Shown here: one piece after another, positions 1,902 through 35,937 of the stretch
Layout of the letters: each line of letters begins with the position of its first letter
Numbering within the stretch: position 1 is the stretch's first letter
Assembly: GCA_947503965.1 (NCBI GenBank)
Contig: CANNFU010000004.1
Coordinates: forward strand, 364,654-428,653
Direction: 5' to 3'
From: an uncultured Rhodobacteraceae bacterium
GTDB lineage: Bacteria > Pseudomonadota > Alphaproteobacteria > Rhodobacterales > Rhodobacteraceae
DNA length: 64,000 bases
Notes under the pieces: model-generated
Databases searched by the model: none
Told to the model about the DNA's origin: nothing
Seen by the model: only the letters and a program-made list of their open reading frames with translations
Position numbers and translations under genes: made by a program

Positions 1902-2410
1902 GGTCAGCGCAGCGCGCCTCGGACCCTCGCGAAGATATCATAGACCACCTGCCCCAAATGCGCGCCTTTGCGCGCAGCTTGACCCGTGACCGGGTGTCGG
2001 CTGACGATCTTGTGCAAGATACTGTCGTGAACGCGTGGAAAGGTTTTCATAACTTTACGCTGGGGACAAATCTGCGGGCCTGGTTGTTCACCATCCTACG
2101 CAACACGCATTATGCGAACCTGCGCAAAACCAGACGAACGCATCTTGTCTCGGTTGAACCTCTGGCCGGGGAAATGGTCGGACAGCAGGGCAGTGATGCC
2201 TATCTTGCCATGATCGATTTTGAACGCGCCTTAGGAATGTTGCCCACCGAACAGCGCGAGGCGGTTGTTTTGGTCGGGGCGGGTGGTTTGTCTTATCAGG
2301 ACGCCGCGGACGCCTGTGGCGTGTCGATCGGTACGATCAAAAGCAGGGTCAACCGTGGCCGCACACGCCTTGCAGAACTTTTGGGTCGAAAGGGCCCGCA
2401 AATGCTTTAG
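1898..2410 (+). CDS. ecfG: ECF sigma factor, EcfG-like (sigma-70 regions 2 and 4)
   Basis: 170 aa with a sigma-70 r2 motif (DDLVQDTVVNAWKGFHNF..NLRAWLFTILRN) and an r4 HTH (LSYQDAADACGVSIGTIKSRVNRGR). It has a TTG start overlapping the nepR stop. Confidence 0.8.
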   Translation: MRSAQRASDPREDIIDHLPQMRAFARSLTRDRVSADDLVQDTVVNAWKGFHNFTLGTNLRAWLFTILRNTHYANLRKTRRTHLVSVEPLAGEMVGQQGSDAYLAMIDFERALGMLPTEQREAVVLVGAGGLSYQDAADACGVSIGTIKSRVNRGRTRLAELLGRKGPQML

Positions 2411-2442
2411 GATGCGCCAAAGCGATAAGCTGGAAGACGACT

Positions 2443-3051
2443 TTGGCAAAGCAACCACTGAAAGATGCACCGCAAATTGATGTGACGAGTGTCGCCATGC
2501 TGCGCGACTGGCTTGCAAAAAATCACACGCAAGCGACAGGTGTCTGGCTCGTTCTGATGAAAAAGGCGGCACCTGCGGGGTATGTGCCGCTCAGCGATAT
2601 CGTCGACACGTGTCTTTGCTTCGGCTGGGTCGATAGCCTGCCGCGCGCCAAGGACGATTTGCGCACGATGCTCTACGTCAGCCCGCGCAAACCGGGTTCA
2701 AACTGGAGCCGCGTGAACAAGGAAAAGGTCGCGCGGTTGCAGGCGGCCGGGCTGATGCACCCAGCGGGCCAGTCGGTCGTGGATCGGTCCAAAGCGGACG
2801 GATCATGGACAGCACTGGATGATGTTGAAAACCTTGTTATTCCGGCCGATTTGCAAACAGCGTTTGATGCATGTCCCGGTGCGCAGGACCAATGGGATGC
2901 TTTTCCCAGATCCGTCAAACGTGGTGCGCTTGAGATTTTATTGAATGCAAAACGCGCAGCGACACGCGCGGCCAAGATAGAACAGATCGTGGCCGATAGC
3001 GCAAAAAACCAAAGGCCCTTCCAATGGAAGGGCCCCGGTCAAAAGTCATAA
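2443..3051 (+). CDS. YdeI/OmpD-associated family protein (uncharacterized)
   Basis: 202 aa with ATG at 2443. It resembles the YdeI/OmdA bacteriocin-protection family (VWLVLMKK...GWVDS...). Confidence 0.55.
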   Translation: MAKQPLKDAPQIDVTSVAMLRDWLAKNHTQATGVWLVLMKKAAPAGYVPLSDIVDTCLCFGWVDSLPRAKDDLRTMLYVSPRKPGSNWSRVNKEKVARLQAAGLMHPAGQSVVDRSKADGSWTALDDVENLVIPADLQTAFDACPGAQDQWDAFPRSVKRGALEILLNAKRAATRAAKIEQIVADSAKNQRPFQWKGPGQKS

Positions 3052-3065
3052 GCTGATATACTTGA

Positions 3066-4220
3066 TCAGACCTCTGCGAACAGATCCTCTGCCCCGCGTT
3101 TGGCCAGATATTCGGCCTGGCTGATTGGTCCGGCGGAGCCGACCAACGCGCGATAGGCATCATAGCTTTCAAAGATGCGGCGACCCATATCGTCATCCTC
3201 GGCCACGCTGGCCGCCACGTCGAATGACACACGCGACAGTTCGTTCCAGACATCATCCGGCAGACGCGTCGGCTTCACACCGGATTCCGTCAAAAGCTGC
3301 ACCAGTGCGATCCCGTTATTGCCATAATAGTCGGCAGTGTGGGCGGTCAGTTCCGCCTCGGTCACGCTTTCAATCACAGCCCGGTCCACATCAGACAGGT
3401 TGTTCCAGAAATCGAGGTTCATACCAACAGCGGCCATCGTGCCGGGCTCGTGGAAGCCGGGATAGATATAGGTCGACAGCAGCTTCTGGAAGCCAAATTG
3501 CAGGTCGTTATAGGGTCCAACCCACTCGGTCGCGTCAATGGTGCCTTCGAAAAGCGCCTCAACAATGCCACCGCCGGGCAGCACAACCGCATTGGCACCC
3601 ATCCGTGCGATCACCTGACCGCCAAGGCCGGGCATCCGCATGGTCAAGCCTTCGAAATCGTCCTTGCTGGTGATTTCCTTGTTGAACCAGCCACCCATCT
3701 GAACGCCAGTGCCACCGACGGCCAGCGATTTGACGCCATATCCCGCGTTCAGCTCGTCCCACAGCGCTTGCCCACCGCCATATTTGACCCAGGCGGCCTG
3801 TTCGACCGAGGTCAGGCCCAGCGGCACAGTGGTGAAGAAATTGAAACCACGGTGCTTGCCTTGGAAGTAATACTCAGCCGAGTGATACATCTCGATCTCG
3901 CCCGCGCTGGCGGCATCGTGCACGCCTAGCGCCGGAACCAGCGAACCGGCCCAGTAGATTTCGACATTCAGGCGGCCATTGCTGGCAGTATTGATACCTT
4001 CGGCCACGCGCGCTGCACTATCGGCCAGACCACCCAGACCCGCAGGCCAGGATGTTGCCATGCGGATCGTCTGGGGCGCCCCTTGCGCGATGGCTGGGCT
4101 GGCCAGTACCGCAGCACCGGTCAGCGCCGCACCACCGCCCAAAAGGGCACGACGGCGCGACATGGGTTGGGATTTCGATTGCGTATCGGCCATCGGTGTC
4201 TCTTTCAAATCATATGTCAT
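3066..4220 (-). CDS. TRAP transporter substrate-binding protein, DctP/COG4663-type, Tat signal
   Basis: 384 aa with a twin-arginine signal SRRRALLGGGAALTGAAVLASPAIAQG. The mature domain is DctP-like periplasmic binding protein. Confidence 0.75.
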   Translation of the reverse strand: MTYDLKETPMADTQSKSQPMSRRRALLGGGAALTGAAVLASPAIAQGAPQTIRMATSWPAGLGGLADSAARVAEGINTASNGRLNVEIYWAGSLVPALGVHDAASAGEIEMYHSAEYYFQGKHRGFNFFTTVPLGLTSVEQAAWVKYGGGQALWDELNAGYGVKSLAVGGTGVQMGGWFNKEITSKDDFEGLTMRMPGLGGQVIARMGANAVVLPGGGIVEALFEGTIDATEWVGPYNDLQFGFQKLLSTYIYPGFHEPGTMAAVGMNLDFWNNLSDVDRAVIESVTEAELTAHTADYYGNNGIALVQLLTESGVKPTRLPDDVWNELSRVSFDVAASVAEDDDMGRRIFESYDAYRALVGSAGPISQAEYLAKRGAEDLFAEV

Positions 4221-5314
4221 TGGCTCAGCGCCCCCTTACGGCCGAGGAAGAACGCGGTTTCGCCAATCTCGCTCCAACCGGCGACATCGCCGATGAAGTA
4301 AAGATAGGCGTCACCTACATCGGCACCCAGATCACCGGATTCGATGATTTCCAGCATGGTTGCGTTGGATGCGGTGATCTGCGCGTTCCAGATGTCCTGT
4401 GGCATCTCATGCGATGTCACGGCATTGCCTGCAGCCTGTAATGCGGTTGCACTGTCGTGCATCGCTTTGGCCCGGTTCAGGCCATGCTCTGCCATGATGC
4501 AGCGGTCTAACAGCAACTGGTCGGTCTCGGACAGGGCGTCCCATGTGCCAAGGTTAAAGCCCACCGACAGCGCCGATGCAGGGCGACCAGCATTTGGTGT
4601 AGTCATATGCGGGAACGTGCCCAGCAAACCAGCCGCGGCCATCTGTGCGACGTTCAAGCCTTCGAATGCATCCAAGCTAGCCACATCAACACCGCTGATA
4701 CGGATATCGCTGACATCAGACGCGCCCATGGCACGCATCACATTGACACCCAGACCGACAGAGCCGACCTTGCTGCCGGTCAGATCTCCAGCACCCGAAA
4801 GAGGCGCTTTGGACCAGATCGGCATGGGGCCATCATCGCCTGCCATAAAGGATTTGATGCCGTATTCCTCGCCAAGAATATCCCACATGAACCGGCCATC
4901 AGCGACCAGCACCCATGATTCCAGCTCGCTTGGGCTCATCCCGCCGGGCATGGACGAAAAGATGCCAAAAGCGGCGTTGGTGTCGACAAAGGCCTCTTCT
5001 GCGGACAGATACATATCTGCCCCACCCGATGAGACCGTGGATAGAAAACCTGCCGCGTCGGATGCGGGGGCTGTCTGTACAGTGATCTGGATGGTGCCGC
5101 CGGATGTGCGGGCAACACGATCCGCCAGCGCCTGTGCTGCGGCTGGTCGGTCGGTCACCAGGGTCAGTGCCACGGCGCTTTGCGCGTGGGCTGTTGTCCC
5201 TGCAACCGCCATGACACCCAAACCGGTGCCAAGTAACGTTCTGCGTTTCATATCAAGTGTTCCTTCACTTGCGGTCCTGTGCGTGGCGCATCCATCACAC
5301 GGGACCCAATTCAA
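4217..5314 (-). CDS. TRAP transporter substrate-binding protein paralog (likely start MKRRTLLG at 5251)
   Basis: It is homologous in architecture to the upstream SBP and carries a signal peptide MKRRTLLGTGLGVMAVAGTTAHAQS. There is a 4-bp overlap with the neighbouring SBP gene. No dctQ/dctM is nearby. Confidence 0.7.
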   Translation of the reverse strand: MNWVPCDGCATHRTASEGTLDMKRRTLLGTGLGVMAVAGTTAHAQSAVALTLVTDRPAAAQALADRVARTSGGTIQITVQTAPASDAAGFLSTVSSGGADMYLSAEEAFVDTNAAFGIFSSMPGGMSPSELESWVLVADGRFMWDILGEEYGIKSFMAGDDGPMPIWSKAPLSGAGDLTGSKVGSVGLGVNVMRAMGASDVSDIRISGVDVASLDAFEGLNVAQMAAAGLLGTFPHMTTPNAGRPASALSVGFNLGTWDALSETDQLLLDRCIMAEHGLNRAKAMHDSATALQAAGNAVTSHEMPQDIWNAQITASNATMLEIIESGDLGADVGDAYLYFIGDVAGWSEIGETAFFLGRKGALSQ

Positions 5315-5340
5315 TTTCGTGACGCTTGTTTGCCAGCAGC

Positions 5341-6900
5341 TTAACGCAGCCAGATTTCAACGCGGCGATTGCTTTCGCGACCATCTGCAGTCTCGTTACA
5401 ACCCACAGGTGCAAGAGGTCCATAAGATGATACCGATATACGGCCCGCAAGCACGTCACCGCCGATCGCAGCGACAAGCGCATCGCGCAAGGATGTGGCG
5501 CGCAACAATGCCAGACGTTCATTCAGGTCAAAACGCCCCACATCATCTGTAAAGCCGATGATCAGAACCTCGCGGTTACGCGCCTCTGCGCTGTTGAGGA
5601 AGTCAACCATACGCTGAACGTCTTCCAGCGATTTGTTGTCCAACCGGGCCGAACCAGAGGTAAAGCGGAAGGTCGTCGACAAACGGTCCGCAGTTGCCAG
5701 ATCGCGCGAGAAGTTCTGCACCAGACCCAGCGTGGCACCGGTGCTGGCCGACAGGATGGCAGACGTCATCCGCGTACCCTGCAAGCTGATCGGCTCGCTC
5801 ACAACGACCTGATCCACATATCCTGCATTGGCAATCAGCGGCTGCGCCTCTGGTGAAGTCAGGAATTCAATGAAATCGTTCCCGGTGGAGGACTGCACCG
5901 CATCACCGGTATATGCAAACACACGACGGCTGAGCGGGTATTCCTCTGCCTTGATTGCAAAGTCAGTTGCGTAGGCCAGCGGACCGCATGTCTGACGGAT
6001 CGGCAGAACCTCACCCTGATTGGCTTCGGACAGGCTTGTCACAGTGATTGCGGCTTCGTTCGCAGCCACTGCGGCAGCTGCCGCGGCTTCGCTTTCGGCG
6101 CGTTCGGCACTGCGGCGCAGACGCACACGGTTGGGGTCAAGCACCAGTTCAGTAAAGGCCTGATCCAAGGAAGAGCCTTCCGCGGGCAACAGCATCTGGA
6201 TTGGCAGGTTGTCACCGCCCAGTTCGGACCAGTTTCTGATGCGGCCCGACGCGATCAGCGCCAGTTCTTCCAATGACACAGAACGTACGGGATTGTTGGG
6301 ATGCACCAGCGGTACGATCGCGTCCAGCGCGATAATGCGTTCACGGCTCAGATCACGCAGGTCGGTACCACCAGCGGCAACGACGCCTTCGGCGACAGCG
6401 GCAGGGACCGGAACCTTGGTGATGGCCATGTCGACCTGGTTCGTCACCAGTTGCGAAAACGCAGCGTCGGTCGGTGCCAATGTCACATCAACTTTGCCGG
6501 CATTCGTATTTGTCTGGAAATTCTGCAAATCGATACGGGCAACCACACCATTGGCACCCGGTGCCGACAGACCTGTCAGGTCCCGCGAGGTCGCAAACCC
6601 GTTCACCATCGCCTGCAACAGACTAGCGGTCTTCGGTTCATTGACAGCGACCGCCAGCTCAAGATTTGTGGTCAGTTGCGGGCAGGCCGCACCACTGCAA
6701 TCTGTTGCCGAACGCGACAGGCGCAATTGCCCGATATCGGTATCCAGCACGAAAACCTCATCATCGAATGACACGAGTTCACCGGTAATCGAGACTGCGT
6801 TGTCTTTACTTGAGATTGTAACCTGGTCCGCAAATGTTGCCAGCGGTGTCGCGGCAAAACAGGCAGCCAAGGTCATTTTTTGTCGAAGTGTCTTCATCAA
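5341..6900 (-). CDS. phosphate-binding (PstS-like PBP) domain fused to a C-terminal OmpA-like peptidoglycan-binding domain
   Basis: 519 aa. The N-terminal signal peptide is followed by a PBP-like domain, and the C-terminus carries the OmpA_C signature (TDDVGRFDLNERLALLRATSLRDALV....NRRVEIWL). Confidence 0.7.
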   Translation of the reverse strand: MMKTLRQKMTLAACFAATPLATFADQVTISSKDNAVSITGELVSFDDEVFVLDTDIGQLRLSRSATDCSGAACPQLTTNLELAVAVNEPKTASLLQAMVNGFATSRDLTGLSAPGANGVVARIDLQNFQTNTNAGKVDVTLAPTDAAFSQLVTNQVDMAITKVPVPAAVAEGVVAAGGTDLRDLSRERIIALDAIVPLVHPNNPVRSVSLEELALIASGRIRNWSELGGDNLPIQMLLPAEGSSLDQAFTELVLDPNRVRLRRSAERAESEAAAAAAVAANEAAITVTSLSEANQGEVLPIRQTCGPLAYATDFAIKAEEYPLSRRVFAYTGDAVQSSTGNDFIEFLTSPEAQPLIANAGYVDQVVVSEPISLQGTRMTSAILSASTGATLGLVQNFSRDLATADRLSTTFRFTSGSARLDNKSLEDVQRMVDFLNSAEARNREVLIIGFTDDVGRFDLNERLALLRATSLRDALVAAIGGDVLAGRISVSSYGPLAPVGCNETADGRESNRRVEIWLR

Positions 6901-7219
6901 TCATAACCCTAATAATGATTTTCGGTGCCCTTCCCCAGGACGGCCGATTGCATGATAGGGTGGCTAAGCCTCTAATTTGGCGAAAAGATGATCCAATTGC
7001 GGTTATCGCAATGATTGTTTCCAAATTTGGGCGATTCGGACTTGTGCGTAAAAAATAGACATCACGATGCCTCACACTCGCTTTGGCCTATTCATTTACG
7101 GCCATTTCGTGGCTTTTTGACGCGACGTGCAGAAACGGACTTTAGACGGCAGGGCAGCGATATGTTGACCCTTGTCGCGGCCTCCGCCAAACCTGCATCA
7201 AATGCCAAGGAGACGACAG

Positions 7220-7963
7220 ATGATCATCGGACATATCGGTGCACGGGCAGGCAGCAAGGGTGTGCCGAACAAGAATTTTCGCATGCTCCATGGCAAACAT
7301 CTGATCGACTGGTCACTGGACCAGCTATTTGCCTGCGACCGGGTGGATCATGTTGTCGTCTCAACCGATTCAGAAGAAATGTACGCCCATGCGATCAAGC
7401 GTGGCTGTCTTGATATAGGGCTGCGTCCGGCAGAGTTGGCAACCGATACGGCCGCCAAATGGCATGTCTGGCAACACGCCTTAGGCGAGGTGGAAAAGCA
7501 GACCGGCCCGGCTGACGCATTTCTGGACCTTGATTGCACGTCGCCCCTGCGGCTGCCGCAAGACATCGAGGCCGGGTTGGATCTTTTTGCCGCAAAGCAG
7601 CCCGATATGGTGATGTCGTGCTGCGAAAGCCGCAAGAACCCGTATTTCAACATGCTCGAAACGGATGCGGATGGCGGCCTGCACGTGTCAAAACCCCTGC
7701 CCCACGGTGTCGTTGCCCGCCAGCAGGCCCCAATGGTCTATGATCATGTGGGTTTGGTCTATGTGGTCAAACCGGACTACCTGCGCCAGGCGGCCAGCCT
7801 GTTTGAAGGTCATGTCATTCCGCTGGTCGTGCCAAATGAACGGGGGCTGGACGTGGACAGCCCGTTTGACTGGGATGTCATCGATTATCTTCTGGGCAAA
7901 CAGATTGCCGACGGCATCAGGCCACCGGCGGATCGACTACCACCAGCCCTGCCAAGGCTTTAG
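7220..7963 (+). CDS. acylneuraminate (nonulosonic acid) cytidylyltransferase, NeuA/CMP-sugar synthetase family
   Basis: It begins MIIGHIGARAGSKGVPNKN, typical of CMP-NeuAc/CMP-Kdo-type cytidylyltransferases. An AGGAGA RBS lies 6 nt before the ATG at 7220. The ORF track start at 7172 is probably spurious. Confidence 0.75.
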   Translation: MIIGHIGARAGSKGVPNKNFRMLHGKHLIDWSLDQLFACDRVDHVVVSTDSEEMYAHAIKRGCLDIGLRPAELATDTAAKWHVWQHALGEVEKQTGPADAFLDLDCTSPLRLPQDIEAGLDLFAAKQPDMVMSCCESRKNPYFNMLETDADGGLHVSKPLPHGVVARQQAPMVYDHVGLVYVVKPDYLRQAASLFEGHVIPLVVPNERGLDVDSPFDWDVIDYLLGKQIADGIRPPADRLPPALPRL

Positions 7964-8671
7964 CGCGGCCTGCTTGGCGGCAAAACTCGCCGTCAGCGTG
8001 TCAGGATTGTATTCCGTCTCGATCCAGTCATCGATCCGGATCGGGCTTTGCGCGTTACGCGCGGCATAGACATCCAGAAAGTGATCAAGGATCCCCGTCT
8101 TGGTCCGCCGGATATGTAGGTATCGAAAACTTAGCTGTTTTTGCGCCACCGCAAGCGGCGCATCTTCATACAGCATCAGATAAATCGCCGCCGCCAGCCC
8201 CGTGCGATCCGCACCGGATTTGCAGTGCAGCACAAAGGGGCGCTTGATCGTTTCAAACGCCGCCAAAAGATCCGTCAACTCGCGCACGCTGGGCGCACGC
8301 CGCGCGGCCATCTGGCTGTCGATCAGTGTCAGCCCAAGTTTTTGGCAGCTTTCAACCTCGAACAGATAATGCGGTTGCTTGGCGACACCGCGCAGGTTCA
8401 GCACAGTCTTGATCCCCATCGCTGCATACGCTTTGAACCGTTTGTGATTGGGATGGTTCGACCGATAGGCGCCCGGCGCGAATTCTTCGAAATTATGCCA
8501 GAAGGTGCGCAGGATTCCGTGATCCAGCCAGTTCAAATGCCAATACGACCGCCTGCGTTCGCGCGGATCGGTGATGTCATGCCCAAAGGAATGGCGCAGA
8601 TCACGCTCTCTTTTATCCAGATTTCGAAGTATTTTGCGGATCATTGACGGGCCAGAAAACAAGTGCACCAT
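7937..8671 (-). CDS. protein-tyrosine/dual-specificity phosphatase family protein
   Basis: It carries the CX5R P-loop HCKSGADRTG. The likely start is MIRKILRNL at 8644. Its 3' end overlaps the neuA-like gene convergently. Confidence 0.65.
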   Translation of the reverse strand: MVHLFSGPSMIRKILRNLDKRERDLRHSFGHDITDPRERRRSYWHLNWLDHGILRTFWHNFEEFAPGAYRSNHPNHKRFKAYAAMGIKTVLNLRGVAKQPHYLFEVESCQKLGLTLIDSQMAARRAPSVRELTDLLAAFETIKRPFVLHCKSGADRTGLAAAIYLMLYEDAPLAVAQKQLSFRYLHIRRTKTGILDHFLDVYAARNAQSPIRIDDWIETEYNPDTLTASFAAKQAALKPWQGWW

Positions 8672-8773
8672 TCACTTGGACCATGCAAAGCCGCATTGCA
8701 ATGGTTCGTGCAATTGCTCCGCCGCGTCAAACCCCATAGATAACGGGAAAGAGTTTGAACCAAGGAGCCGTCA

Positions 8774-9805
8774 ATGGACATCGCAGGCCGCAAAATCGGA
8801 CCCGACCATCCCCCGCTTGTCATCGCCGAAATCGGGATTAACCATGGCGGCGACCTTGCGGTTGCCAAAGAGATGGTGCGTCTTGCCGCCGGGGCCGGGT
8901 GCGAAATGATCAAGCATCAGACGCACATTTTAGAAGACGAAATGACCGACGAGGCCAAGCAGATTTTTCCACCCAATGCCGACGTGTCAATCTGGGATGT
9001 AATGGCTGCCTGTGCGTTATCGCTGGAGGATGAGGCAGAGCTGAAACGCTACACCGAAAGCCTTGGGATCATCTGGATCTCGACGCCGTTCAGCCGGGCC
9101 GCCGCGGATTTCCTGAACGATCTGGACGTGCCCGCCTTCAAGATCGGGTCAGGCGAGGCCGACAACCTGCCCCTGATCCGGCATATCGCGCGCATGGGCA
9201 AGCCGGTGCTCATGTCCACGGGCATGCAAAGTATCGAAACGATCCGCGCCTCTGTCGATATTCTTGACGCAGCAGGCATCGATTATGCCCTGCTGGAATG
9301 TACGAACCTTTACCCCTCGCCACCTGAAATCGTTTCACTGCAAGGCGTTACAGACTTGCGGAACGCCTTTCCAAATGCCGTTGTCGGCTTCTCGGATCAC
9401 TCCATTGGCCCAGACATGGCACTCGCCTCGGTCGCGCTGGGTGCGTGTATTCTGGAGCGGCACTATACCGACACACGCTACCGCAAGGGGCCGGACATCA
9501 TCAATTCCATGGACCCCGCCGAATTACGCCACATCATCGACCGCTCCCGCGAGATCCATACCGCCCTGCACAATCCCAAACAGCGGACCAGCGCCGAAGA
9601 GGATGTGTATCGCTTTGCCCGTGCATCAGTCGTGGCGGACAAGGATCTGCCGGAAGGCCACACAATCACCGAAGCCGATATCTGGGCCCGCCGCCCCGGA
9701 TCGGGCGAGATTGCAGGCTATGATTTCGACAAGGTCCTTGGCAAAACCCTGACCCGCGCCGTGACCCGCAACACCCAGCTGAGATGGGCTGATCTGAATG
9801 GCTGA
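8774..9805 (+). CDS. N-acetylneuraminate / nonulosonic acid synthase (NeuB/PseI/LegI family)
   Basis: 343 aa, NeuB-like along its length (PLVIAEIGINHGGDL..., a TIM-barrel region, and a C-terminal SAF/antifreeze-like domain). Confidence 0.8.
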   Translation: MDIAGRKIGPDHPPLVIAEIGINHGGDLAVAKEMVRLAAGAGCEMIKHQTHILEDEMTDEAKQIFPPNADVSIWDVMAACALSLEDEAELKRYTESLGIIWISTPFSRAAADFLNDLDVPAFKIGSGEADNLPLIRHIARMGKPVLMSTGMQSIETIRASVDILDAAGIDYALLECTNLYPSPPEIVSLQGVTDLRNAFPNAVVGFSDHSIGPDMALASVALGACILERHYTDTRYRKGPDIINSMDPAELRHIIDRSREIHTALHNPKQRTSAEEDVYRFARASVVADKDLPEGHTITEADIWARRPGSGEIAGYDFDKVLGKTLTRAVTRNTQLRWADLNG

Positions 9806-10592
9806 CACGCTGACCCGCGCCGATCTGGGTATCTGGCTGATCAATCTTGATCGCGATGCCGACCGGCTGGCGGGCATGCAAACCCAGCTTGATGCGATGG
9901 GGTTGAATTACACCCGGTTTCCGGCGATCTATGGTAAGGATAACGCCGACGAACTTGCAAAACGTGCCGATGCCGACGCCTATGCGCGCAATATGGGCAG
10001 CCCGATCCTGCCGGGAAAGATGGGCTGTTACGCAAGCCACGTGGCGGTGTGGGAGGCATTTGTTGCCTCTGACCACAAGGTCGCGCTGATCCTCGAAGAT
10101 GATGTGGTTTTCCACGATGATTTCCTTGAAAGCCTCGATCTGGCGCTGGCGGGCGCCGCGCATTGGGACACGGTACGGTTCAACTGCATTCGCGCCAAAA
10201 TGCCGGTCAGTCAGGGCAAGCTCGGGAACTACAGCCTGAACGCCTATATCGGGCCGTTTACGGGCAACGCGACCTACCTGTTAAAGAAGGATGTAGCCCG
10301 GCGTCTGCTACTCAACCTCTGGCCACAAACCCGTGCCTTTGATCATGAATTGAACCGGTTTTTCCGGCATGATTTCCGGCAATTCGGGTTAGAGCCATTT
10401 TCATCCCATGTGGATGACGGCAATGTCAGTTCAATCACTGGAACTGGCTTTGGGCTGGTGAAAAAGTTCAAGTGGTACAAGCGCTTGCCGCATTACCGGC
10501 TGAAGGCCGCGAATTATTTCCGAAGGGCAGCATGGCTCGCGCGGAAAGGGCGATTGCTCCCAAAAAACAAAAAACTCGACCTTAAAAACTGA
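9798..10592 (+). CDS. glycosyltransferase family 25 (LPS/LOS glycosyltransferase) protein
   Basis: 264 aa with a GT25 (Lic2B/LpsA-like) N-terminal region (LINLDRDADRL...CYASHVAVWE..ALILEDD). It overlaps the neuB-like gene by 8 nt. Confidence 0.7.
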   Translation: MADTLTRADLGIWLINLDRDADRLAGMQTQLDAMGLNYTRFPAIYGKDNADELAKRADADAYARNMGSPILPGKMGCYASHVAVWEAFVASDHKVALILEDDVVFHDDFLESLDLALAGAAHWDTVRFNCIRAKMPVSQGKLGNYSLNAYIGPFTGNATYLLKKDVARRLLLNLWPQTRAFDHELNRFFRHDFRQFGLEPFSSHVDDGNVSSITGTGFGLVKKFKWYKRLPHYRLKAANYFRRAAWLARKGRLLPKNKKLDLKN

Positions 10593-11893: not shown

Positions 11894-12724
11894 ATGTATA
11901 CCGTCCCTCTTCCCCGCATCGGCACCGATATCGCGTGGCGTGACGCCGCCAAGCGGTTGATCAGCGCAGGTGTATCGCCTGACGATGTGCTGTGGGACTT
12001 TGGCGCTGAGATGGGTGAGTTATTCGCAACGGCGACGCCTTTGCCCCCGCCAACACGACGGATCAAGGCCCCGCAAAGCTTTGTGCAGATGGCCGACACC
12101 GTGATTTGGCATAAGGACCCGCAGCGGTTTGGGCGGCTTTATGCATTGCTTTGGCGTTTGCGGCACGAGCAGGGATTGATGCAAGACCGCGCCGATCCGC
12201 AACTGGCCAAGCTGCGCCAGATGGAAAAGGGTGTGCATCGTTGCAAGCATAAAATGAAAGCCTTCGTGCGCTTCCGCGACCTGCGCCAGGGTGGCGACAG
12301 GCGCAGTTTTGCCGCATGGTTCGAACCGACCCATCACACGGTGGAACCCACCGCCCCGTTCTTTGCCCGCCGTTTTGCCGATATGGATTGGATGATCGCG
12401 ACACCGGACGTCACCGCGCAATTTGTCGATGGAAATTTGTCCTTCCATCCCGGTCAGCCCAAACCCGACCTGCCCGAAGACGCGGCAGAGGCGCTGTGGG
12501 GCACCTATTTCTGCAACATCTTCAATCCGGCCCGGTTGAAGGTGCAGGCAATGACGTCCCAAATGCCCAAGAAATACTGGAAAAACCTGCCCGAGGCAGC
12601 ACATATTCGATCCCTGATCGAAGGCGCCGAAGCCAAGGTGCAAGAAATGCGCGACAACGCTCCGACGCTGCCGCCGGTCCGTGCGGAACGCATCACCAAA
12701 CGGCTTCGCGGAGACGAAGATTAG
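11894..12724 (+). CDS. DUF4130/TIGR03915-family putative DNA repair protein (partner of the radical SAM protein)
   Basis: 276 aa. Its start lies 2 nt after the radical SAM stop, a conserved pairing. Confidence 0.6.
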   Translation: MYTVPLPRIGTDIAWRDAAKRLISAGVSPDDVLWDFGAEMGELFATATPLPPPTRRIKAPQSFVQMADTVIWHKDPQRFGRLYALLWRLRHEQGLMQDRADPQLAKLRQMEKGVHRCKHKMKAFVRFRDLRQGGDRRSFAAWFEPTHHTVEPTAPFFARRFADMDWMIATPDVTAQFVDGNLSFHPGQPKPDLPEDAAEALWGTYFCNIFNPARLKVQAMTSQMPKKYWKNLPEAAHIRSLIEGAEAKVQEMRDNAPTLPPVRAERITKRLRGDED

Positions 12725-33511: not shown

Positions 33512-34255
33512 CTACACGTGATCCAACGTCACAGGCTCGGGACGACCGACACGACACAGATCACAGATGCGCACGGCCTCGGTAATGCCCATCAGCGCCA
33601 GTTCACGGAAACTGGGCAAAACGAACGGGTCCGCGCGGGCATAATCGACCTCATACCCGATATCCTCGAACGCGGCGACCGACAGACGGCTGAGCGGGCG
33701 GTCATCGCCCGACAGGAAGCCGGTCAGCAGTTCATCGCCAAAGATCAGCTCGCGCCAATGTCCTTCGCGGGTGCCTGCCCCGCCGGTATTGGACAAAGGC
33801 ACCGCATCCCCGCCCGCCGCATCAAGAGCTGCATATTCCCGGATTGAGGCCGTACCGGTGAACCGCGGGTCCATACTGCCGGTCCCACGGATCAACCCCT
33901 TGCGCGACCAAAGCGTACCAAAGCCCAGAACATGCGCCATTTCATGCAGGATCACATCTTCAAAGCTGCCACCGGCCTCAAGATTCGCCACATCTGCGTC
34001 GTCGAATTGCATGATCCCGGCAACGGGTAAATCAGTATCAGGGCGCAGGATCGTGGGGCCTGCCTGCCCCAAAACGCCGCTCTCGCCGTCGATATCCTCG
34101 ATCATCACGTCAATGCGCACCCCGGTCAGCACATCACCATCCACATCAATCGGCGCAAACCCGGTATTTATGACATTGTCCCAACGCGCCGCCGCCCGAT
34201 CAAAGACGCCGCGACGCCCGGCTGACAATTCTGTGACGTAGTTCAGGGTGATCAT
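33512..34255 (-). CDS. zinc metallopeptidase, HEXXH (leishmanolysin/M8-like motif HEMAHVLGFG)
   Basis: 247 aa. The HEMAHVLGFG motif is read directly from the sequence. There is no obvious signal peptide. Confidence 0.55.
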   Translation of the reverse strand: MITLNYVTELSAGRRGVFDRAAARWDNVINTGFAPIDVDGDVLTGVRIDVMIEDIDGESGVLGQAGPTILRPDTDLPVAGIMQFDDADVANLEAGGSFEDVILHEMAHVLGFGTLWSRKGLIRGTGSMDPRFTGTASIREYAALDAAGGDAVPLSNTGGAGTREGHWRELIFGDELLTGFLSGDDRPLSRLSVAAFEDIGYEVDYARADPFVLPSFRELALMGITEAVRICDLCRVGRPEPVTLDHV

Positions 34256-34977: not shown

Positions 34978-35937
34978 ATGCTAGACTTCAACAGATGGAA
35001 AAGATCGATTACTTTTCTTGAAGGCCCGACACGGGAATGCGCAAACCCCTACGATCAGGATGCGACCGAACATGTGCGCACAGCGCGTATCACTGGGCCG
35101 TGGCATCGCAATATGCCAGCGTATCTCGAAAAACACGCGGCCAAAGGCTTGGCATTTTCGTTCAAGGATGGATTTCGGTGCACAAGCTATGATTTCTTTG
35201 CAGAATTGAGGTTCATCGAAGCCTTCAATGTGCCGACTTACAACCCCGACTTCGATTTCGGTGACATGCCGATTTCCCTTCTGTCAGGGCTTAGGAGGAT
35301 CAAAGCATCAGGGAATGTGAAACAGACCATCGATCTTTCGACGCTACCGCACCTGCAGTCCTGTACGATGAAATGGCAGAAGGCGACTGAAAGCGTGTTT
35401 GAAGCCAAGTGTCTGAAACGCTTGCAGATCCGCAGCCTGAGCAAGCAAGGCGCAGAGGGTCTGGCAAACCTCACATCCCTCGAAAATCTGGAGGTGTCGC
35501 ATAGCGGCATTCATTCCTTCGCGCCAATCAGCGCATTGACCCAGCTAAGGCGACTGTCGCTATCGGTTTGCCGTGGCCTCGAAAACCTTGATGGGATTGA
35601 GGCGCTGCAGAACCTGCGCTGTCTGCATCTGGACGAGGTGCATCATGTGTCTTCTTTTGATTGTTTGACGCCGCTGAAGAACCTAGAAGTCCTGACAATT
35701 GCGGATGCGCGCGACATCGAATCCGTTGCGCCGCTGAAAGAACTACCAAATCTTAGGGCGCTCTGGATCGCGGGCACAAAGACCAGGATTGTCGATGGCG
35801 ACCTGACCCCGTTGACGCACCTACCAAAACTGGCGATGCTGACGCTGGGAAACAAGCGGCACTACAGCCACCAGGTGATCAAGAAGTGGAGTTGGGATAA
35901 CCTCGAAAAACCCGACACATTGCTTGAGAAGGTCTAA
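34978..35937 (+). CDS. leucine-rich repeat (LRR) domain protein
   Basis: 319 aa with about 7 LRR units (LxxLxxLxLxx[CN]xxL: LANLTSLENLEVSHSGIHSFAPISALTQLRRLSLSVCRGLENLDGIEALQNLRCLHLDEV...). GC content (about 48%) is markedly below its surroundings. Confidence 0.65.
   Translation: MLDFNRWKRSITFLEGPTRECANPYDQDATEHVRTARITGPWHRNMPAYLEKHAAKGLAFSFKDGFRCTSYDFFAELRFIEAFNVPTYNPDFDFGDMPISLLSGLRRIKASGNVKQTIDLSTLPHLQSCTMKWQKATESVFEAKCLKRLQIRSLSKQGAEGLANLTSLENLEVSHSGIHSFAPISALTQLRRLSLSVCRGLENLDGIEALQNLRCLHLDEVHHVSSFDCLTPLKNLEVLTIADARDIESVAPLKELPNLRALWIAGTKTRIVDGDLTPLTHLPKLAMLTLGNKRHYSHQVIKKWSWDNLEKPDTLLEKV

Follow-up and report, generated by a model that had tools for sequence, protein, structure and literature searches.

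Which surface glycan is served by a set of nonulosonic acid genes that comes without the enzymes for the first and the last step, and what is the role of the phosphatase gene that it encloses? These questions are raised by positions 6901-10592 of a 64,000-nucleotide stretch of DNA (the window) from an uncultured Rhodobacteraceae bacterium (contig CANNFU010000004.1 of assembly GCA_947503965.1). The region holds four genes: those for a NeuA-like cytidylyltransferase, a phosphatase with a CX5R motif, a NeuB-type synthase and a glycosyltransferase of family 25 (GT25). The original prediction had named all four, and the list of open reading frames (ORFs) together with domain scans placed each of them where it had been described. 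It had taken them for a partial or modular nonulosonic acid cassette, without neuC, for the decoration of lipopolysaccharide (LPS) or capsule. This is supported and can be sharpened: most likely the sugar is N-acetylneuraminate (Neu5Ac) and its target the inner core of lipooligosaccharide (LOS). We consider it probable, if far from certain, that these four genes form one piece of the LOS core and lipid A gene set of Yoonia/Loktanella-group Rhodobacteraceae, acting by the mechanism proposed in the last section. The cassette is best read as the Neu5Ac branch of this gene set. Judged by sequence, the host is itself a member of the Yoonia/Loktanella group; close homologues of its phosphatase occur in Yoonia, Loktanella, Cognatiyoonia and Roseobacter sp. 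CCS2.

The probable sialic acid genes, their relatives and the glycosyltransferase

The gene neuB (8774-9805, plus strand) encodes a protein of 343 aa. Its only Pfam matches are the NeuB domain PF03102 (226.8 bits, cut-off 22.1) and the SAF domain PF08666 (42.4 bits, cut-off 21), and its only NCBIfam matches are TIGR03569 (NeuB, 342.8 bits) and PseI (232 bits). In phmmer searches against solved structures, NeuB of Neisseria meningitidis (1XUU/1XUZ) was matched with 360 bits (E 1e-106) and 49% identity (168/340), as opposed to 146 bits for SpsE and 129 bits for PseI. From the literature on 1XUZ we take the residues of the meningococcal enzyme at the sites for metal, for phosphoenolpyruvate (PEP) and for N-acetylmannosamine (ManNAc) to be E25, K53, Q55, T110, K129, S132, E134, S154, N184, Y186, S213, H215, E234, H236, D247, F288 and R314; all 17 are identical in the window protein. 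By these comparisons the synthase is a true member of the NeuB family. An identity as PseI was rejected on both pairs of scores. Synthases of 3-deoxy-D-manno-octulosonate (Kdo) 8-phosphate or of 3-deoxy-D-arabino-heptulosonate 7-phosphate (DAHP) were rejected as well, as NeuB, SAF and PseI were the only models matched. The NeuB-family assignment of the original prediction thus holds.

The partner enzyme is encoded on the same strand. The mechanical ORF of neuA covers 7172-7963 and begins with TTG; the likely start is the ATG at 7220, which has an AAGGAG at 7207-7212 and gives a product of 247 aa (7220-7963). Orthologues have 237-238 aa; in Yoonia loci their identity is 83-92%. The product matches PF02348 (CTP_transf_3) with 55.4 bits. 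All five of its PDB matches are CMP-Neu5Ac synthetases, with E values from 2e-21 (6IFD) to 1e-7 (2e-17 for 1EYR of N. meningitidis). The KdsB models of NCBIfam reach at most 34 bits. The protein is thus a probable CMP-nonulosonate synthetase, and by its structural relatives the nucleotide sugar would be CMP-Neu5Ac.

A complete Neu5Ac pathway, consisting of NeuC, NeuB, NeuA and a sialyltransferase, is not present in the window. With proteins from related loci as queries, tblastn gave no match for NeuC, KdtA, MsbA-like, GT29-like or LpxL-like proteins in the 64 kb. Pfam scans of the window ORFs found no Epimerase_2 domain, and scans and tblastn together found no sialyltransferase of a known family (GT29/38/42/52/80/97/100) in the window. 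These searches, which included the 39 ORFs outside the cassette, confirm the earlier statement that neuC and other pathway enzymes are missing from it. The best-known counterpart, the sia locus of N. meningitidis (siaA/neuC, siaB/neuA, siaC/neuB), resembles the present one in NeuB identity, in the active-site positions and in having a NeuA of the CMP-Neu5Ac synthetase type as the partner; relatives of the window add the NeuC-type epimerase. It differs in that the window has neither neuC nor a polysialyltransferase, in that the meningococcal genes form a capsule locus whereas the context here is that of the LOS core, and in the phosphatase gene that lies between neuA and neuB here.

Related loci are more complete. 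The neuA/phosphatase/neuB core occurs in 12 of them besides the window (L001-L010 among them; L005-L007 were found by tblastn, and L004 is truncated). The full four-gene order is present in at least six loci in which the GT25 position was in range (L001, L002, L003, L005, L007, L008). In Yoonia maritima (locus L001) and CCS2 (L002), the order neuA/phosphatase/neuB/GT25 is embedded in outer flanks that differ from those of the window. This recurrence despite different flanks shows that the arrangement is no chance juxtaposition. Some relatives share one side or the other: the left flank (metG, followed further on by two substrate-binding protein genes, a PstS-OmpA fusion gene and neuA) is common to the window, L006 and L007, and the right flank (a radical-SAM gene of TIGR03916 and a DUF4130 gene) to the window, L002 and L006. 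What varies is the stretch between neuB and the radical-SAM gene, a typical spot of glycan diversity in a chromosomal, vertically inherited locus. The coding GC of the four genes (0.55-0.59) equals the background (window GC 0.573), so that their composition gives no sign of recent transfer.

Several loci carry other genes in this variable stretch. In L001 (6899-8113), L002 (6897-8051) and L007 (4945-6063), each on the minus strand, GT25 is followed by an extra gene for a protein of 372-404 aa that has no Pfam domain and carries GT-A-like motifs (ADNGS, CDVDELV); a search of the window for this gene found none. In L009 the slot is filled, instead of by GT25, with a kinase-like YrbL-PhoP_reg protein (4662-5333, minus strand) and a short Glyphos_transf-like protein (5973-6791, plus strand).

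The target of the sugar is suggested by what surrounds neuB elsewhere. In L003, L009, L010, L066 and L087 (Halodurantibacterium), the same neuB is found next to a tandem of two Kdo transferases of family GT30 (PF04413), in company of GT25 or without it. A full-length NeuC gene is also found in L009, L010, L066 and L087, and NeuC is present at L065 and L067 too; the NeuC of L009 scores 348 bits with TIGR03568 (cut-off 236). L067 combines a lipid A acyltransferase, a GT29-like sialyltransferase and one Kdo transferase. As sugar-nucleotide genes, the related clusters hold the NeuC/NeuB/NeuA trio only. Genes for the dehydratases, aminotransferases or acetyltransferases by which legionaminic or pseudaminic acid is made (LegB/C/H and PseB/C/H types) are present neither in them nor in the window.

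Such a product is in fact known from the same genus-level group. The LOS of Yoonia rosea (formerly Loktanella rosea) carries alpha-Neu-(2->8)[alpha-Kdo-(2->4)]-alpha-Kdo on a lipid A without 1- and 4'-phosphates (Ierano et al. 2010, as reviewed in PMC3210612). This glycan needs the synthesis and activation of Neu5Ac, as encoded here, and the phosphate-free lipid A needs a phosphatase. The likeness has its bounds: the report on Y. rosea covers chemistry only, assigns no genes and concerns another strain or species, and the structure contains no hexose that would need GT25. Y. rosea is not among the names listed for the homologues of GT25 and the phosphatase. Because the relatives carry NeuC and Kdo transferases, and because Y. 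rosea LOS has Neu-(2->8)-Kdo, Neu5Ac as the product of the synthase and the LOS inner core as its target are the most likely assignments.

Several observations weigh against these assignments. The window protein misses the equivalog cut-off of TIGR03569 (399.65 bits), and a large survey found that phylogeny cannot separate NeuB from LegI (PMC8208679). The assignment to Neu5Ac is thus drawn from gene context and from the chemistry of another species. The window has neither neuC nor a sialyltransferase of a known family, and KpsS-like capsule genes adjoin neuB in L065 and L074, which suggests that some other lineages use neuB for a capsule. Hence the cassette could make another nonulosonic acid, such as legionaminic acid or a related sugar or 2-keto-3-deoxynononic acid (Kdn), or could serve a capsule or flagellin instead of the LOS core. 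NeuA would fit such a reading as well, as its best NCBIfam match is PseF (TIGR03584, 93.4 bits), below the cut-off of 205.7. Yet we regard this as distinctly unlikely. PseI is excluded by score, and the trio of sugar-nucleotide genes stands alone, with no genes of the LegB/C/H or PseB/C/H types. In the relatives the neighbouring genes encode Kdo transferases and an acyltransferase of lipid A rather than being kps, wzx/wzy, flagellar or maf genes, and in the LOS of the congener Neu is in fact bound to Kdo.

If Neu5Ac is transferred to Kdo, the question arises by which enzyme. The two tandem GT30 paralogues (for instance L009:985-2265 and 2258-3562) occur in the five loci that have no GT29-like gene, and the two loci with a GT29-like gene, L065 and L067 (for instance L067:6401-7033), the only ones to have it, carry a single GT30. 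From this distribution, five loci versus two, the second GT30 paralogue might be a Neu-(2->8)-Kdo transferase.

The window itself holds the GT25 gene (9798-10592, plus strand, 264 aa). It scores 88.6 bits with PF01755 (gathering score 24), and its relatives in the PDB are GT25 collagen galactosyltransferases only. Its start overlaps the stop of neuB by 8 bp and it is translationally coupled to neuB. Of the earlier description of neuA, neuB and GT25 as co-oriented and overlapping, the overlap therefore applies to neuB and GT25; neuA has the same orientation and is separated from them by the phosphatase gene. Orthologues with 66-90% identity occur in Yoonia, Loktanella, Cognatiyoonia, Halodurantibacterium, Pseudotabrizicola and Rhodobacter lacus. 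The motif E100-D101-D102 (DXD) is invariant in 14 of them, and the basic C-terminal tail is kept.

GT25 could itself form the Neu-(2->8)-Kdo linkage, and would then be the first member of its family to use a CMP-sugar. The overlap with neuB, the pairing with neuB in at least eight loci (L001-L003, L005, L007, L008, L066, L087), the very high conservation and the lack of a known-family sialyltransferase in the window would all agree with this. GT25 enzymes invert, as is needed to make an alpha-sialoside from CMP-beta-Neu5Ac. Nevertheless we think this unlikely. In GT-A enzymes, Mn2+ and the diphosphate of the nucleotide are held by DXD motifs. The sialyl and Kdo transferases known so far use CMP donors and have no DXD motif; the invariant DXD here is typical of Mn2+/UDP-diphosphate binding. 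Besides, there are neuB loci without GT25 (L006, L009, L010, L012, L065, L067, L074), Rhodobacter lacus has the GT25 orthologue without neuB nearby, and the second GT30 paralogue or GT29 tracks neuB better. As GT25 keeps the DXD motif, a UDP-hexose appears likelier as its donor than CMP-Neu5Ac, and a role as core-extending transferase is favoured. In this respect it may be compared with the GT25 enzymes of LOS synthesis, LgtB and LgtE of Neisseria and Lic2A and LpsA of Haemophilus, which as a family have PF01755, about 260 aa and a DXD motif and extend the LOS core. The similarity to these is only remote; the window enzyme is coupled to neuB, and its acceptor would be a core of Kdo and Neu only.

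The phosphatase between neuA and neuB

The phosphatase gene lies on the minus strand (7937-8644, with an alternative start at 8671). The 235-aa form that starts at 8644 is the one kept in about 120 close relatives. The gene had been described as lying convergently between its neighbours. It is convergent with neuA, the 3' ends overlapping by 27 bp, but divergent from neuB, with a gap of 129 bp. The protein contains the motif HCKSGADRTG and matches PF22784 (36.5 bits), PF13350 (35.5 bits) and also PF22785, all above their cut-offs. It is basic and has no transmembrane segment (none is predicted in any of the four proteins) and no signal peptide.

The family of the protein is sharply delimited, with members of about 230 aa, and is matched by at least 150 clusters at 50% identity with E < 1e-30. 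D41, R46, C141, D146, R147 and H177 are invariant in 56 family members, and P65, R85, H140, G144 and G184 are likewise invariant in the family alignment. The two best-scoring cluster representatives, P0121 (459 aa) and P0122 (635 aa), contain two matched stretches each, as tandem duplications or fusions. The cluster members of ten high-GC family representatives bear only Hyphomicrobiales or metagenome names.

An AlphaFold2 model (pLDDT 96) shows a dual-specificity phosphatase (DSP) core with additional N- and C-terminal helices. The top Foldseek matches are Tk-PTP, TpbA, PFA-DSP/Siw14, DUF442 and PTPMT1, with probability 1.00 to DSPs at about 18% identity. By its predicted structure the protein is thus a member of the Cys-based protein tyrosine phosphatase (PTP)/DSP superfamily, with a CX5R P-loop on a DSP fold. 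As the nearest solved folds are only about 18% identical, the substrate cannot be read from the structure alone. Where ShufPTP and Tk-PTP have their 'pDfxaP' loop, the aligned segment is AARRAPS, and no conserved Asp was found there in the 28 alignment rows shown. The general-acid Asp could be replaced by one of two invariant residues, D146 of the P-loop and D41 of the N-terminal extension.

More can be learned from the neighbours of the gene. In an alignment scan of the family with one genome per species, 80 Rhodobacteraceae loci were obtained; related loci overall numbered 82. By tblastn, 40 of the 82 have an msbA-like gene nearby, 16 have neuB, 26 have neither and none has both, so that 66 orthologues are without any neuB. 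In most Rhodobacteraceae the orthologue (45-55% identity) lies between aminotransferase genes and the gene for an ABC exporter whose best NCBIfam match is MsbA. In 18 of the 29 pairs called adjacent, the phosphatase gene overlaps the msbA-like gene by exactly the 4 bp of a stop/start overlap; as greedy calling of the longest ORF misses phosphatase genes under longer antisense ORFs, these counts of adjacency and overlap are lower bounds. In a neighbour-joining tree, the neuB-linked phosphatases are polyphyletic, with at least four distinct positions among the msbA-linked copies, which indicates a single orthologue with changing neighbours and not a paralogue specific for sialic acid.

The association with lipid A genes is not confined to msbA, nor to this family of bacteria. 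Other copies adjoin kdtA (L061) or an LpxL-like gene (L067, L074). On plasmid p1 of Jannaschia sp. CCS1 (L091, 1937-2608), a copy with 55% identity lies between manC and the phosphomannomutase gene manB and adjoins a gene of the lysophospholipid acyltransferase family, another context of the LPS type. Outside Rhodobacteraceae, an exporter with MsbA as the best match adjoins a family member in two lineages (L083; L085/L088). The members from there share 39-75% identity with one representative, which in turn shares about 31% with the window phosphatase.

A possible model for such an enzyme is CtpA of Caulobacter. Its gene, a homologue of tyrosine phosphatase genes, is divergent from msbA-lpxJ-kdtA-lpxK; loss of CtpA lowers lipid A about 1000-fold, and the remaining species keep the 1- and 4'-phosphates (PMC9393093). 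The authors proposed that lipid A is dephosphorylated before galacturonic acid (GalA) is added and that CtpA possibly substitutes for LpxF (PMC9393093). CtpA and the window phosphatase are alike in being cytoplasmic proteins of alphaproteobacteria with a PTP fold and a CX5R site; the gene families of both are associated with msbA and kdtA, and in both organisms the lipid A phosphates are replaced (GalA). There are differences in arrangement: ctpA and msbA are transcribed divergently, the Rhodobacteraceae genes run in one direction and overlap, and the window gene lies between neuA and neuB, away from msbA. By analogy, the window phosphatase probably represents, in its lineage, a CtpA-like and msbA-associated enzyme that serves the lipid A/LPS pathway, and it is probably not an enzyme of the sialic acid pathway. 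Some points weigh against this. Orthology to CtpA would follow from fold family, taxon and gene neighbourhood, and for CtpA, too, the biochemical substrate is so far a proposal. The msbA-like genes score 477-570 bits and thus stay below the MsbA equivalog cut-off of 602. In the window the neighbours are neuA and neuB and not msbA, and no LPS neighbours were seen at L084/L089, one further lineage, or in Azospirillum.

Its position invites a different reading, in which the phosphatase acts on a sugar phosphate of a eukaryote-like route (ManNAc-6-phosphate to Neu5Ac-9-phosphate to Neu5Ac, or the Kdn-9-phosphate equivalent), which would make neuC unneeded. The gene is found between neuA and neuB in all 12 related loci with the core, ten of them of the Yoonia/Loktanella group; the window has no neuC; and the structural neighbours include DSP-fold enzymes that act on phosphates of carbohydrates or inositol (Siw14/PFA-DSP). 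However, such a substrate is hard to reconcile with orthologues in 66 of 82 loci without neuB. The complete Neu cluster of Halodurantibacterium (L087; NeuB-GT25-NeuC-KdtA-KdtA-NeuA) has no phosphatase, and a bona fide NeuC in the relatives points to the non-phosphorylated bacterial route. Moreover, the window NeuB has E at meningococcal position 134, which is D in the NanS enzymes that use ManNAc-6-phosphate (PMC8208679). We consider this reading highly improbable, and phosphatases for Neu5Ac-9-phosphate, Kdn-9-phosphate or ManNAc-6-phosphate were rejected on the distribution, the NeuC-containing relatives and E134.

The original prediction had called the protein a tyrosine phosphatase. A genuine protein tyrosine or dual-specificity phosphatase that regulates envelope or polysaccharide synthesis, similar to TpbA or the Wzb-type partners of bacterial tyrosine kinases (BY-kinases), would share the CX5R active site and the DSP fold, and TpbA of Pseudomonas aeruginosa is among the best structural matches. 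It seems very unlikely all the same. Neither the window nor the conserved neighbourhoods contain a BY-kinase or diguanylate cyclase as a partner, and the protein has no signal peptide, whereas TpbA is periplasmic. The general-acid position is not conserved as Asp in the alignment rows, and the P-loop HCKSGADR presumably resembles that of lipid and inositol phosphatases. The tight coupling to msbA, and the lipid A phenotype of the Caulobacter homologue (PMC9393093), likewise point away from a protein substrate. Thus the protein is probably not a protein phosphatase; by its distribution and gene neighbourhood it is msbA-associated and CtpA-like. A minor possibility is that it is a Kdo-8-phosphate phosphatase substituting for KdsC, against which stands that no kdsA, kdsB or kdsD neighbours were seen.

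Intergenic regions and flanking genes

Two intergenic regions separate divergent genes in and next to the cassette. The first (6901-7219, GC 0.49) lies between neuA (plus strand) and the PstS-OmpA fusion gene (minus strand). Its first 270 bp (6901-7170), described earlier as unusually AT-rich with small palindromes, do have a lower GC (0.474 vs 0.573 in the window, the 2nd percentile of 270-bp windows), and a palindrome is present, the clearest being ATTGCGGTTATCGCAAT at 6996-7012. The deviation is modest, the lowest GC of the window (0.385) being located outside this region, and the AT-rich region is an ordinary divergent promoter of the PstS-OmpA fusion gene and neuA. The palindrome ATTGCGGTTATCGCAAT is not kept in the alignment with L006 and L007, the two relatives with the same flank. 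A block at about 6962-7022 (GCTAAG...GATaCAAtTGCG...ATTGTTTCC) is conserved in both, in contrast to the sequence around it, and may mark a regulatory site that they have in common. For the upstream region, the reading as an RNA element or structured leader was rejected: it has no Rfam match, folds in no unusual way (z = 0.13) and does not conserve its palindrome. The second region (8645-8773, 129 bp, GC 0.52) lies between the phosphatase gene and neuB and could serve as a promoter region shared by the two.

The fusion gene divergent from neuA (5341-6900, minus strand) encodes a phosphate-binding domain of the PstS family (PBP_like_2) joined to an OmpA domain, at the C-terminus, that binds peptidoglycan; the gene has the same position in L006 and L007. 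Directly downstream of GT25 follow the radical-SAM gene of TIGR03916 (10657-11892, plus strand, 581 bits) and its partner, a putative DNA-repair gene of TIGR03915/DUF4130 (11894-12724, plus strand). The two genes, kept as a pair in L002 and L006, have no relation to the glycan genes.

In Pfam scans, the 39 further ORFs of the window are housekeeping genes, including metG, ychF, trpA, rpsA, aroA, metK, lnt, miaB, fabF and fabI, or have no Pfam match (12 of the 39). At some distance, a leishmanolysin-like (Peptidase_M8) ORF (33512-34255, minus strand) lies near a gene for a leucine-rich-repeat protein (34978-35937, plus strand). Both kinds of protein are uncommon in free-living marine alphaproteobacteria.

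The proposed pathway and its meaning

The identities of the genes, their synteny and the distributions of the families are shown here; which sugar is made, its LOS target, the donor of GT25 and the substrate of the phosphatase are inferred. Taken as the Neu5Ac branch of a LOS-core gene set, the cassette would work as follows. ManNAc would be supplied by a hydrolysing UDP-N-acetylglucosamine 2-epimerase of the NeuC type, whose gene adjoins the module in some relatives and here is presumably located elsewhere in the genome, outside the window. NeuB would condense ManNAc and PEP to Neu5Ac, and NeuA would activate this to CMP-Neu5Ac. At the cytoplasmic face of the inner membrane, a transferase would then place Neu5Ac on the inner Kdo of Kdo2-lipid A, giving Neu-(2->8)-Kdo. 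GT25 would most likely add a UDP-derived hexose to the core; less likely, it is the Neu transferase itself. The phosphatase would most likely dephosphorylate lipid A or a precursor, by analogy with CtpA, its usual gene partner being the flippase gene msbA. Such a role agrees with the lack of phosphate in the lipid A of Y. rosea. The proposed outcome, removal of the 1- and/or 4'-phosphate of lipid A, is the same as with LpxE and LpxF of Rhizobium. These are membrane enzymes of the PAP2 family that act at the periplasmic face, unlike the soluble or peripheral PTP-fold protein without transmembrane segment found here.

Much of this is familiar: all four gene families and the standard bacterial Neu5Ac route are known, the glycan product has been described in a congener, and the phosphatase has a plausible characterised counterpart. 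The chemistry of Y. rosea LOS, with a core of ulosonic acids only, including Neu on Kdo, has been known since 2010, and in the literature searched no genes had been assigned to it. The locus and its relatives now provide candidates. The Neu residue could be due to neuB and neuA, together with neuC in relatives, the Neu-Kdo linkage to GT25, GT29 or the second GT30, and the absence of phosphates to the CtpA-like phosphatase.

A bolder interpretation, which we hold to be doubtful as a whole, is that in the Yoonia/Loktanella lineage lipid A loses its phosphates, at the cytoplasmic face, to a soluble PTP-fold enzyme of the CtpA family that is genetically wired to the Neu5Ac module. Sugars with a carboxylate (Neu5Ac, GalA) would then replace phosphate as the anionic groups of LOS, and Neu-(2->8)-Kdo would be made by a family not known to transfer sialic acid, either the neuB-coupled GT25 or the second GT30. 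If this were true, the replacement of phosphate by Neu5Ac and GalA would amount to a phosphorus-sparing pathway to a 'phosphate-free' endotoxin.

For the phosphatase family the meaning is more general. The link of CtpA-type phosphatases with msbA, known from Caulobacter, is extended here to Rhodobacteraceae and to further marine alphaproteobacteria, in support of a general function in the lipid A pathway of a family whose annotation is still 'tyrosine-protein phosphatase'.

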